A stretch of DNA of 39,285 nucleotides from an uncultured Chthoniobacterales bacterium (GTDB lineage Bacteria > Actinomycetota > Acidimicrobiia > Acidimicrobiales > SHLQ01). The notes under the pieces are model-generated. The model was given only the letters and a program-made list of their open reading frames with translations, made no database searches and was not told the DNA's origin. The stretch's first letter is position 1; each line of letters opens with the position of its first letter. The position numbers were made by a program, and so were the translations under genes. The stretch covers positions 1 through 39,285 of the forward strand of contig CAXMRH010000153.1 of the NCBI GenBank assembly GCA_964196045.1, in the 5' to 3' direction. Below, piece after piece: positions 13,198-38,591 of this stretch.

Positions 13198-13647
13198 ATG
13201 TCTGACGCAGTTCTCACACTCATGAAATTCGGGCTACTGCTCGCGCTGTATCTCTTCTTCGCGTGGGTTTTGTGGTCAGCCTTCAACCAGCTTCGGCGGA
13301 GTCCCGTGGCGGTCGCACCAATAACGGCGCAACCACGGTTCGGGTCCACTAGCAACTCGGTGCGCGGGCAAATAGCGATTCTCGAACCGCCCGAGCTTGC
13401 CGGAGCGGTGATGACGATTGGCGATGAGTTGACGATCGGGCGAGCTGCCGCGTGCACCCTGACATTGGACGACACCTATGTCTCCCAACTACATGCCAGC
13501 ATTGTCTGGCGTGATCGCCAGTACCTCGCCGAAGACACCGGCTCGACGAACGGAACATTCGTGAACCGTGAGCGCCTCGTGACTCCTGTCGTGCTCCGGC
13601 CCGGCGACCGCGTACAAATTGGAAGTACGGTGCTTGAGTTCTCATGA
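13198..13647 (+). CDS. fhaB: FhaB/FipA-like protein (N-terminal TM plus FHA domain)
   Basis: 149 aa with a hydrophobic N-terminus (LMKFGLLLALYLFFAWVLW) and an FHA pattern (IGRAAACTLTLDDTYVSQLHA...STNGTFVN). Confidence 0.85.
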   Translation: MSDAVLTLMKFGLLLALYLFFAWVLWSAFNQLRRSPVAVAPITAQPRFGSTSNSVRGQIAILEPPELAGAVMTIGDELTIGRAAACTLTLDDTYVSQLHASIVWRDRQYLAEDTGSTNGTFVNRERLVTPVVLRPGDRVQIGSTVLEFS

Positions 13648-20216: not shown

Positions 20217-20498
20217 ATGTCGAGTCCGAAGAAGCGCCGGGTGCAAGGCGGGCGCGTCACCCCCAAGGGGACGCAGCCGCACAACGCAAAGTCTGTCGAG
20301 ACGCTGCATCATGTCAGCGATGAGCCGAGTGCTCCGTGGGTGACGTGGGTTCTCTTCGGATTACTCGCCCTAGGCATGCTCGTGATCTTCTTGAACTACA
20401 CGAAGCTGGTTCCTGGCGGCGAAACCCACAACGGGTTCACGCTGCTCGGCCTCGGGTTTATTCTTGGCGGGATTATCACCGCCACTCGCTTGCGGTAG
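20217..20498 (+). CDS. crgA: Cell division protein CrgA
   Basis: 93 aa with a basic N-terminus (SSPKKRRVQGGRVTPKG) and two TM helices (WVTWVLFGLLALGMLVIFLNY, LLGLGFILGGIITATRL). It is in the conserved syntenic position. Confidence 0.85.
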   Translation: MSSPKKRRVQGGRVTPKGTQPHNAKSVETLHHVSDEPSAPWVTWVLFGLLALGMLVIFLNYTKLVPGGETHNGFTLLGLGFILGGIITATRLR

Positions 20499-20558
20499 CT
20501 CACCGACGAACCGGCCGATTTGCCGGTCCAAACTACATCGCGGTAGTTCCCCCCAGGG

Positions 20559-20824
20559 TTGTGCACATCCTGTGGATAACTTAAGGGCGTTTTGAATAGT
20601 TTGACCGTAATCCACAGGCTGCGCAGTTTTTCCCACAGGGGTGGCATCAACCGTGGAAATAGCGCTTCACGGGCACGCATGATCCACGCACTGCCCTAGT
20701 TTTGGCGTTTCTAGTGATGCAGGCGCTCGTGGTGTTGCTTATGTTGCTGATGTTATTCGTGGTGTTCCACAATGCGGGACGCTCATGGTGGACAACTTGC
20801 GCGAATGTACAGGCATGTGGATAT
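20559..20824. promoter_or_regulatory. Cluster of DnaA-box-like 9-mers in a relatively AT-rich spacer (candidate DnaA-binding locus: oriC-like or a titration site)
   Basis: There is one perfect TTATCCACA (20571-20579, minus strand). One-mismatch boxes lie at 20559-20567 (ttgtgcaca), 20608-20616 (taatccaca), 20787-20795 (revcomp ttgtccacc) and 20816-20824 (revcomp atatccaca). Two-mismatch boxes lie at 20629-20637, 20680-20688 and 20763-20771. Three boxes share the extension CCACAGG. Confidence 0.55.
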
Positions 20825-20828
20825 CGAC

Positions 20829-21092
20829 CTATTCGATCGGAGTGATCTGATCCATTTCTTGCATGCAGTGCCGGGGAGATTCGGGTTCCTGATCGGTCGA
20901 TGTGGTCATACGCACCTCGGTGCCACAGACAAGGCACCGATACTGGATCTTGACCTTTCGCAGCTCTCCCGGCGGAGGTGGCTCTGGAATGGGTGCGGCC
21001 ATGCCCCGAAGAATGCCCAGTCCCCCTCGGATGATCAGGTATCCGACGACGACTGCAATGAGCAGATTCGTGAGCGGGACTCCGAAGACCAT
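20829..21092 (-). CDS. Hypothetical small membrane protein with a C-terminal Cys/His cluster
   Basis: 87 aa with an N-terminal TM (LLIAVVVGYLIIRGGLGIL), a proline-rich linker and then CLVCGTEV...RHCMQEM. It lies 21 nt downstream of the Mo-oxidoreductase gene and has coding-like codon usage. Confidence 0.5.
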   Translation of the reverse strand: MVFGVPLTNLLIAVVVGYLIIRGGLGILRGMAAPIPEPPPPGELRKVKIQYRCLVCGTEVRMTTSTDQEPESPRHCMQEMDQITPIE

Positions 21093-33923: not shown

Positions 33924-34063
33924 CACGCCCGCTTTCGGGAGTGACGGCCAGGCGATCTGCGGCACACGGCAGGCCTCGCTGAGAGCTGCTGCCTTCCGGC
34001 CCTGACCCGGTTCACGAGCTCCCGTTGCACAGGACCCGACCGTCACACCCCAAAGCGGGCGTG
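33924..34063. repeat. 140-bp element bounded by 24-nt imperfect inverted repeats (MITE-like or a long-stem structured RNA)
   Basis: The left arm is cacgcccgctttcgggagtgacgg (33924-33947). The right arm is ccgtcacaccccaaagcgggcgtg (34040-34063). They are complementary at 22 of 24 positions. The element lies in the 417-bp spacer between the divergent mscL and the HHDH-like gene. Confidence 0.6.
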
Positions 34064-37597: not shown

Positions 37598-38419
37598 CTA
37601 CGTCGGAATGAGTGTGTTTGCGAAGATCTGCCAGGCCAGCACGCTCTTGGCCACGAAGCTGAGCATGATGTAGACCCGCTCGCCGTGGAGGTAGTCGGCC
37701 CAGCGGCCCTTGCCTCGGTACTGCAGCCATTGGTTGATGGCGAATGTGTTGAAGAAGAAGAAGATCGACGCGATGATGCCGTAGACAAATCCGGGAGGGC
37801 CCTCTCCTCCTTCTTGGCTCACGTTGAACCAGAGCGGAACGAGGATGGCCAGCCAGGGGCCGATGCCGGCTACGCAGCCCATCCAGAACGGTGACCACCA
37901 CACGGTTTTGCGCTTGACGTCGTCGGTCGAGTTGACCATTTCCATGATCCAGCCGAAAAAGATCATTGAGACGTTGGCGAAGGCCAGTCCGATGAGTGCA
38001 GCCAGGTCGGTGATTCCCGTCGTCGCTGCGATCAACACCATCATCAGCGTGGACGACAGCGCGTATTCGATCCAGCGGAAGCGATTGCGCCCATGGCGGA
38101 GCTCGCTCTTGTACTTCGGGAACACGACGAGTGCGATCAGGAAGTGGAAGAGGGCCGACAGCAACGAGAACGCAGCAACCCCAGCGGCCAGCGGAATCCC
38201 GAAGAACTCGTTGAGGGCTCCATCTGCGAGGGGGGTTCCAGGAGGTCCGCTGATGTTGAACCCGCTCACGGGGAGCTCAAAGTCGAGATCGCCCAGCACG
38301 ATCATCGCTAGGCCGGTCACGAGGTGAAGGACACCAGCTCCCAAGTTCAGCTTGCGGAGGCGGCTTGCATTGTCGTCGGTGAGCTCGACGACCTTTCGGT
38401 CGAAGTCGATGTTTGGCAT
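37598..38419 (-). CDS. Heliorhodopsin
   Basis: Seven-TM protein with blocks matching my recollection of heliorhodopsin 48C12: NISGPPGT, LSALFHF, FRWIEYALSSTLMMVLIA (counterion Glu), NVSMIFFGW, PFWMGCVAGIGPW, PGFVYGIIASIFFFFNTFAINQWLQYRGKGRWADYLHGERVYIMLSFVAKSVLAWQIF. The Schiff-base Lys codon is at 37646-37648. The start is taken at ATG 38419 (MPNIDFD); the ORF opens at GTG 38512. Confidence 0.85.
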   Translation of the reverse strand: MPNIDFDRKVVELTDDNASRLRKLNLGAGVLHLVTGLAMIVLGDLDFELPVSGFNISGPPGTPLADGALNEFFGIPLAAGVAAFSLLSALFHFLIALVVFPKYKSELRHGRNRFRWIEYALSSTLMMVLIAATTGITDLAALIGLAFANVSMIFFGWIMEMVNSTDDVKRKTVWWSPFWMGCVAGIGPWLAILVPLWFNVSQEGGEGPPGFVYGIIASIFFFFNTFAINQWLQYRGKGRWADYLHGERVYIMLSFVAKSVLAWQIFANTLIPT

Positions 38420-38591
38420 GGGTGTGGTTCTAGACGCCAGCGCCACAGGATGAATGATCAAGGGGGCCCGGATCCCAGCTGGACCTGAACTGAGGCCGAC
38501 TCGTCGAGCCACTGCAACACTGTCGCTCGCTTGTAACGTGGTGGGCTGCTTCGATGCTGAGCTGGCGCGTGCTGGCGAAGGGTCGTTGTCT

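Follow-up and report, generated by a model that had tools for sequence, protein, structure and literature searches.

A conserved DnaA-box module beside crgA in Acidimicrobiia as the probable counterpart of a mycobacterial DnaA-bound site

The window analysed here, a 39-kb stretch of DNA (39,285 nucleotides, contig CAXMRH010000153.1 of assembly GCA_964196045.1) from an uncultured bacterium of the Acidimicrobiales, carries a cluster of DnaA boxes in the 330-bp spacer (20499-20828) between the stop of the cell-division gene crgA and the stop of a convergent gene for an 87-aa protein (orf87). The cluster is real and enriched far beyond chance, and its crgA-proximal part belongs to a composite module that is conserved and linked to crgA independently of its own orientation and of the gene downstream. 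The spacer is probably the Acidimicrobiia counterpart of the crgA-adjacent DnaA site of mycobacteria, and would thus be a regulatory locus at which proteins bind double-stranded DNA rather than an origin, a promoter or an RNA gene. The lack of a skew switch, the varying downstream gene and the occasional inversion of the module are among the grounds for a non-origin, orientation-independent reading. The kind of element is already known from the mycobacterial site, and the Acidimicrobiia form is a variant of it with a flipped middle box, a convergent gene context and, in this genome, an expanded cluster. Neither the cross-class conservation of the composite module nor the coincidence of its invariant bases with clinically selected positions is described in the searched literature. 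A preliminary description of the spacer had recognised the cluster, while the composite module, its conservation across the phylum and the prior experiments in Mycobacterium tuberculosis had all been overlooked.

The boxes were scanned with two consensus forms, the universal TTATCCACA and the actinobacterial TTGTCCACA (Table 1). The tally given in the preliminary description (one perfect, four one-mismatch and three two-mismatch boxes) is reproduced only when both forms are applied: TTATCCACA alone yields two one-mismatch boxes (20608 and 20816), and TTGTCCACA adds two (20559 and 20787). The CCACAGG sequence said to be common to three of the boxes is present at 20612-20618 and 20633-20639 and, as the reverse complement, at 20569-20575. 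Five of the 14 boxes with at most one mismatch in the window fall within the spacer. The densest 330-bp stretch never held more than three such boxes in 200 first-order Markov simulations of the window, compared with the five observed. With the dinucleotide composition of the spacer itself as the null, the probability of at least three boxes is 0.0013. The spacer is lower in GC than its surroundings, as described (0.53-0.54 versus 0.61 for the window). The reported run of 9-bp-spaced units, however, survives only as a weak tandem repeat (2.4 copies of TGTTGCTGA at 20733-20754, Tandem Repeats Finder score 37).

The conserved core of the module spans 20531-20579 and begins 33 bp past the crgA stop (20498 to 20531). 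Its parts are an inverted repeat built around ACA-N4-TGT, then a CCCCA element, then close-set DnaA boxes, two of which are opposed; in the window it reads AACTACA-tcgc-GGTAGTT - CCCCCCA - ggg - TTGTGCACA - tcc - TGTGGATAA. Its minus strand gives TTATCCACA-N3-TGTGCACAA-N3-TGGGGGGAA, in which a strong box faces a second strong box and a weak box follows in tandem. The ACA of the repeat is kept at 20535-20537, whereas the TGT of nearly all relatives is GGT at 20542-20544. The outer stem of the repeat has changed symmetrically, with AACTAC/GTAGTT in the window and AGTTAC/GTAACT in the relatives. The six boxes at 20608-20824 are a lineage-specific extension of this core, and the part of the spacer that holds them has no counterpart in other loci.

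A TrpG-anchored search of reference genomes returned 80 loci, taken as 10-kb flanks, of which those nearest to the window are all from Acidimicrobiales. About 25 Acidimicrobiales genomes, whose GC contents range from 43 to 74%, have crgA and the 87-aa gene as convergent neighbours with spacers of 70-335 bp, and the densest DnaA-box window of each 20-kb Acidimicrobiales locus is usually the spacer between these two genes. Alignment of 25 spacers (alignment A1) showed a shared module of ~50 nt with the consensus aGTTACA-tcgg-TGTrACT - cTCCCCA - N3 - TTGTCCACA - N3 - TGTGGAyAA. Most relatives have only three to five boxes, in spacers of 70-140 bp with 50-69% GC. Together the two strong boxes make a palindrome, of which each Acidimicrobiales locus has essentially one copy and which the non-actinobacterial loci of the same search almost entirely lack. 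The module is inverted relative to crgA in two genomes (L021 and L039). A further one (L075) has its module, still intact, 2.9 kb away from crgA, at another junction of convergent genes and beside a thiolase stop. Nucleotide profiles of the module, run with nhmmer over 1.56 Mb, gave a single match in the window (20530-20580, E = 1.4e-10).

The Acidimicrobiia profile also detects 22 modules in Actinomycetes. In Saccharopolyspora rosea (L080), which was among the loci of the TrpG search, the module directly follows the crgA stop with, as read from crgA, the layout CAACAccggTGTAAGT-CATCCCCA-c-TGGGGACAA-ctcc-TGTGGATAA, and is itself followed by a co-directional gene of the Rv0010c type (bPH_6). 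The M. tuberculosis complex (L083) has AATCACAcgcaTGTGATT-CATCCCCA-c-TGTTGATAG-cgtc-TGTGGATAA past crgA, and Mycolicibacterium (L085) and Crossiella (L087) show the same layout. The M. tuberculosis locus was found by a CrgA search, the top matches of which were 99% identical, and the recovered intergenic sequence agrees with the H37Rv recombineering oligonucleotides in the supplement of PMC7738170. A metagenome scan with an alignment of Actinomycetes CrgA proteins added 80 loci, 73 of them with enough downstream sequence, and at least two boxes lie within 200 bp of the crgA stop in 70 of these 73. Overall, the module accompanies crgA in about 78 of the 80. Boxes number 10.8 per kb in the 200-bp interval, compared with 0.30 per kb in the remainder of these loci. 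The consensus of the metagenomic Actinomycetes modules is gAAnnACAcggnTGTaAnTCATCCCCAnTGtGGAcAA-N4-TGTGGATAA, with the N4 gap kept in 57 of 60 modules (54 distinct sequences). The CCCCA element has the consensus TCATCCCCA in the 60 modules, and the last box has the consensus TGTGGAyAA, the same as in alignment A1. The two strongest boxes of the Actinomycetes layout are arranged in tandem and not inverted. At one locus (L140) the module lies 425 bp downstream of crgA. The downstream gene thus varies with the lineage, being a co-directional bPH_6 gene in Actinomycetes and the convergent orf87 in Acidimicrobiales. The element itself is made up of the same parts in both classes, and most of the actinobacterial crgA loci examined have it immediately 3' of crgA. 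Two metagenomic Actinomycetes loci (L168:2832-2914 and L161) carry a tandem duplication of the repeat-plus-box unit, AAACACAcgcgTGTAAG-TTATCCACA-c-TGTGGAAAT-CACAtgtgTGTAAG-TCATCCCCA, a hint that the repeat can be copied together with the box beside it, as one unit.

The Rv0010c-Rv0011c site, the one well-documented additional DnaA site in mycobacteria, influences both the length of the cells and their tolerance of isoniazid in clinical M. tuberculosis (PMC7738170). DnaA of M. tuberculosis binds strongly to oriC, rpmH-dnaA, the region upstream of dnaB, the Rv3843c region and Rv0010c-Rv0011c, as determined by affinity purification of DNA in vitro followed by sequencing (IDAP-seq) and electrophoretic mobility shift assays (Hicks 2020, PMC7738170), and the same five regions were recovered in M. 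smegmatis by chromatin immunoprecipitation sequencing (ChIP-seq; PMC7738170). Rv0011c is crgA, and the module of the window is the Acidimicrobiia match to this 'cryptic DnaA interaction site', which according to Hicks et al. does not correspond in any obvious way to the DnaA binding of other bacteria (PMC7738170). Engineered mutants of the site have longer cells and low-level isoniazid tolerance, as do dnaA mutants, in which the expression of Rv0010c and Rv0011c is unchanged (PMC7738170). The phenotype of the clinical dnaA variants was compared by the same authors to that of dnaA variants with reduced activity in other bacteria (PMC7738170).

The 'small palindrome 65 bp upstream of Rv0010c' described in PMC7738170 is the inverted repeat of the module. 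Convergent clinical mutations of M. tuberculosis map to its TGT (13629-13631) and ACA (13636-13638), and position 13631 is mutated in six independent clinical lineages. Two independent G13619T events lie in the CCCCA element, and 22 IS6110 insertions are found at the junction 13625. The mutated ACA and TGT positions correspond to near-invariant columns of alignment A1. In comparison with the Rv0010c-Rv0011c site, the module of the window likewise lies directly 3' of crgA and runs from the repeat through (T)CCCCA to boxes that end in a perfect TGTGGATAA, and the similarity of the sequences across the two classes is detected by profile search. However, the downstream gene of the window is the convergent 87-aa gene and not a co-directional bPH_6 gene; the middle box is forward with 3-bp gaps, instead of reverse with gaps of 1 bp and 4 bp; the first T of the TGT is replaced by G; and six extra boxes extend over the 330 bp. 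The binding of DnaA is known for M. tuberculosis and M. smegmatis, whereas the module of the window is known from its sequence.

The arrangement of the boxes also resembles that of the DnaA-reactivating sequences (DARS) of Escherichia coli, whose core consists of three boxes with conserved spacing, I and II lying head-to-head across 5 bp (PMC6868365). DARS1, as read from the MG1655 genome, is TTATCCACT-N5-TGTGGATAA-N3-TGTGTATTA. DARS1, DARS2 and the module share three close boxes in forward/reverse/reverse topology, the first pair facing each other and the third box being degenerate and in tandem; each is small, lies outside oriC and has at least one box of perfect consensus. The conserved sequence flanking the boxes of the module is comparable to the IHF and Fis sites of DARS2. 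However, no sequence homology exists outside the boxes. DARS elements act by promoting the release of ADP from ADP-DnaA. No Hda-dependent cycle of regulatory inactivation of DnaA (RIDA), the process that they oppose in E. coli, is known from Actinobacteria. The datA locus of E. coli, the box clusters of Bacillus subtilis and the D78 cluster of Streptomyces coelicolor are similar in being non-origin clusters at intergenic or 3'-end positions that modulate initiation. They differ in lacking the crgA-linked repeat and CCCCA module and the fixed geometry of three boxes, and datA, which promotes the hydrolysis of ATP-DnaA, additionally requires an IHF site. Deletion of D78 reportedly raised the replication frequency. 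The option of a locus of the datA, DARS or DnaA-box-cluster type, offered in the preliminary description, therefore stands as a class, the spacer being the counterpart of a DnaA-bound mycobacterial site.

The following mode of action would fit these features. Domain IV of DnaA would bind the strong boxes, and the opposed pair would force two DnaA molecules face to face. The inverted repeat would probably bind an accessory factor, or else act as a pair of very weak DnaA sites, and together with the weak third box it could extend or modulate the DnaA complex. Such a complex would alter the amount of active DnaA and so couple the initiation of replication to cell division, and the six extra boxes of this genome would raise its capacity. 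A DARS-like role that promotes DnaA activity is favoured over simple titration because the core could accommodate only three to five DnaA molecules, because its spacing is strictly conserved, because the conserved flanking accessory site is the mutational target in M. tuberculosis, and because the site mutants of M. tuberculosis share the phenotype of the clinical dnaA variants.

Several observations weigh against this interpretation. The mutations selected in M. tuberculosis spare the canonical boxes and strike the inverted repeat; the canonical TGTGGATAA box has no mutation in the mutation table of PMC7738170. Thus, a protein other than DnaA could be the decisive one at the site. DnaA binding in the organism of the window is predicted from the boxes, and the binding and the phenotype have been demonstrated for the mycobacterial copy. 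The G at 20542 corresponds to M. tuberculosis position 13631, at which engineered mutants show the phenotype. Because this base was mutated six independent times in clinical M. tuberculosis, the copy in the window may be functionally shifted and may work differently. No module was found within 10 kb of crgA in a second clade of Acidimicrobiia (L028, L031, L033, L038, L041, L045, L046 and L065), in which a thiolase-like gene converges on crgA. The element is lost or moved in this clade, and the module is therefore dispensable at the crgA position. The gap of the opposed pair is 3 bp in the window and in most Acidimicrobiales and 1 bp in Actinomycetes, compared with 5 bp in DARS. Because of this difference the element is not classed, on its sequence, as a member of the DARS family, although by analogy it may act similarly.

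Some known DNA-binding proteins were considered as binders of the inverted repeat. HigA2 is an antitoxin not known outside a restricted lineage, and was rejected as the general binder of the repeat since such a protein gives no account of the cross-class conservation. At 8 µM it bound the repeat of M. tuberculosis in vitro, and Rv0010c is upregulated in a higA2 mutant (PMC11205783). The 18-bp repeat of M. tuberculosis (L083:3354-3371, ATCAC-N6-GTGAT) has accordingly been claimed for two proteins, as part of the DnaA site and as a HigA2 site. MtrA was not supported as the binder: the GTnAC-like half-sites of the repeat are inverted, whereas MtrA sites are direct repeats; Rv0010c, Rv0011c and crgA are absent from two supplementary files of the MtrA ChIP-seq paper. 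A scan for parS sites had no match. In spacing and half-sites, the parS, dif, CRP, BldD and NrdR consensus sequences do not seem to fit the repeat.

Among the alternatives to an activity-promoting role, pure titration or negative control in the manner of datA, the B. subtilis clusters or D78 is unlikely, though the least unlikely of them. The boxes would hold DnaA away from oriC or promote its inactivation, and the eight boxes within 330 bp would enlarge the sink; titration was named as a possibility by Hicks et al. (PMC7738170). However, three to five boxes in spacers of 70-140 bp, as found in most relatives, make a very small sink, for which a strict spacing (N4 in 57 of 60 modules) and a conserved flanking repeat are needless. 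Moreover, the phenotype of the mycobacterial site mutants is that of the clinical dnaA variants, which were likened to variants of reduced activity, rather than the over-initiation to be expected if a sink were lost. A local transcriptional role, in which DnaA and the factor at the repeat would act as a roadblock or operator on read-through from crgA or on the downstream gene, is more improbable still. The tight linkage of the element to the 3' end of crgA, the position of the Actinomycetes module within the 5' region of an Rv0010c-like gene, and the response of Rv0010c to the loss of HigA2, together with the in vitro binding of HigA2 to the repeat, are compatible with such a role. Against it, both neighbours end at the element in Acidimicrobiales, leaving no promoter to regulate, and a scan of the spacer found no promoter-like or terminator-like site. 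The module is also inverted in two genomes, and the expression of Rv0010c and Rv0011c does not change in dnaA mutants. The preliminary description had likewise argued that the cluster is not a promoter operator, and the scan and the lineage-dependent downstream gene bear this out. The idea of a small RNA or a bidirectional intrinsic terminator, with two hairpins whose stems happen to resemble DnaA boxes, draws on the position of the element between convergent genes and on the foldable palindromes in both of its conserved parts. It can hardly be correct. Rfam gave no match in the spacer at gathering or permissive thresholds, RNAalifold on 25 modules gave no consensus structure, and the candidate stems are paired in 80.5% of the cells of these modules, compared with 79.1% in column shuffles. 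An RNA element was rejected on these three results. As no covariation is present, the palindromes are conserved as sequence, as protein-binding sites are. Furthermore, the AT-rich stem sequence is kept even in genomes of 70-74% GC, the arms are exact DnaA-box consensus sequences, and the strongest boxes of Actinomycetes are tandem and not inverted.

The other option of the preliminary description, an oriC-type chromosomal origin that in this lineage lies away from dnaA-dnaN, is very unlikely, as is a fragment of such an origin. Such an origin would fit the dense box cluster, the GC content below that of the surroundings and the AT-richer stretch at 20580-20611, the sole moderately AT-rich one (~37% GC), in which no trinucleotide repeat of the GAT type was noticed; no DnaA signature lies within 10 kb of the locus in any of the Acidimicrobiia examined, and a negative-to-positive change of skew occurs at the element in nine of 15 relatives. 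However, in the window itself the skew is positive to either side of the spacer, at +0.028 and +0.026 for 20 kb each, so that the expected GC-skew switch is missing here. In a per-gene regression, based on crude gene calls and on the skew of a contig from a fragmented metagenome-assembled genome (MAG) and of 10-kb flanks, the effect of the side is not significant (+0.009, confidence interval -0.001 to 0.018), whereas the effect of the strand is (-0.019). Thus, the apparent switch in the relatives is due to the strand of the flanking genes. No switch is seen in L003, L075 and L016, which have the largest skew among the relatives. The genes on both sides point at the element, opposite to the usual layout of an origin, no parS sites were found, and dnaA and dnaN are not adjacent, though this is typical for Actinobacteria. 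The core fits into spacers as short as 70 bp, which leave no space for an unwinding element. Finally, ~12 kb separate the mycobacterial counterpart from the dnaA-dnaN origin established by experiment, and DnaA binds it as a site of its own. The coding strands of these high-GC Acidimicrobiales are C-rich on average (13 loci L003-L043 and the window, strand effect -0.019). Convergent genes with C-rich coding strands can mimic an origin-like skew switch, a caveat for skew-based prediction of origins on short contigs.

For the probable counterpart of the mycobacterial site, the conservation of bases, spacing and orientation gives concrete handles on the mechanism of the site in mycobacteria. It argues against a role as the Rv0010c promoter and suggests that the ACA-N4-TGT repeat is read by an accessory factor. 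A clinically relevant and poorly understood site becomes a comparative system that spans classes. As a tentative proposal, less probable than its converse, the crgA-linked module, shared by at least two classes of Actinomycetota, may be an ancient element that regulates the activity of DnaA, a functional Gram-positive counterpart of DARS with an opposed pair in its three-box core and an accessory-factor site, tying initiation physically and functionally to a cell-division gene. If a DARS-like reading is true, the mycobacterial 'cryptic site' would be one instance of such an element, and the genome of the window would show a lineage-specific expansion to eight boxes.

Both genes that flank the spacer were confirmed with their coordinates, so that its position between two convergent gene ends stands as described (Table 1). 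The 87-aa gene lies beside crgA across Acidimicrobiales with 45-58% identity (tblastn, ~25 loci, for example L003:9310-9561) and is the usual downstream neighbour of the module there. The protein has its single transmembrane helix at the N terminus, contains a linker rich in proline as well as a CxxC...HC motif, and matched no Pfam family. The order tRNA-Leu, fhaA...pknB, trpG, crgA and tRNA-Ala is present as claimed. The gyrBA-dnaN-dnaA continuation is absent, also as claimed: the window encodes no DnaA, DnaN, GyrA, GyrB or RecF, and no DnaA, GyrA, GyrB or RecF signature was found in any frame of it.

Table 1. Coordinates of the DnaA boxes, the other elements of the module and the flanking genes in the window.
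Feature	Position	Strand	Remarks
crgA (CrgA cell-division protein, 93 aa)	20217-20498	+	Pfam PF06781, E = 1.2e-5; gene call in the source MAG
Inverted repeat AACTACAtcgcGGTAGTT, AACTAC-atcgcg-GTAGTT	20531-20548		Aligns with the M. tuberculosis palindrome AATCACAcgcaTGTGATT
Degenerate box TTCCCCCCA, 'TCCCCA' element	20547-20555	+	Third, weak box when read on the minus strand
DnaA box TTGTGCACA	20559-20567	+	One mismatch to TTGTCCACA; opposed to the box at 20571 with a 3-bp gap
Perfect DnaA box TTATCCACA	20571-20579	-	Most conserved box of the module
DnaA box TAATCCACA (TAATCCACAgg)	20608-20616	+	One mismatch to TTATCCACA
DnaA box TTTCCCACAgg	20629-20637	+	Two mismatches
Weak box TGATCCACG	20680-20688	+	Two mismatches
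Distal box TGTTCCACA	20763-20771	+	Two mismatches
Distal box TTGTCCACC	20787-20795	-	One mismatch; found with the TTGTCCACA consensus
Distal box ATATCCACA	20816-20824	-	One mismatch to TTATCCACA
Convergent 87-aa gene (orf87)	20829-21092	-	Gene call in MAG GCA_964196615.1; tblastn homologues in ~25 loci

An open reading frame of 47 aa (20702-20845, plus strand) lies inside the spacer. It contains a hydrophobic stretch, VVLLMLLMLFVVF, and underlies the 9-bp units of the preliminary description. It matched no Pfam family, has no homologue in the 168 loci and is uncalled in the MAG annotation, and its GC content at third codon positions is 0.58, compared with 0.66-0.78 in real genes. It is probably non-coding, a conclusion of low certainty; a lineage-specific small membrane peptide is possible. 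Elsewhere in the window, a small signal recognition particle RNA is encoded at 33943-34041 on the minus strand, and a heliorhodopsin gene (37598-38512, minus strand, Pfam E = 1e-89) fits a light-exposed aquatic actinobacterium.

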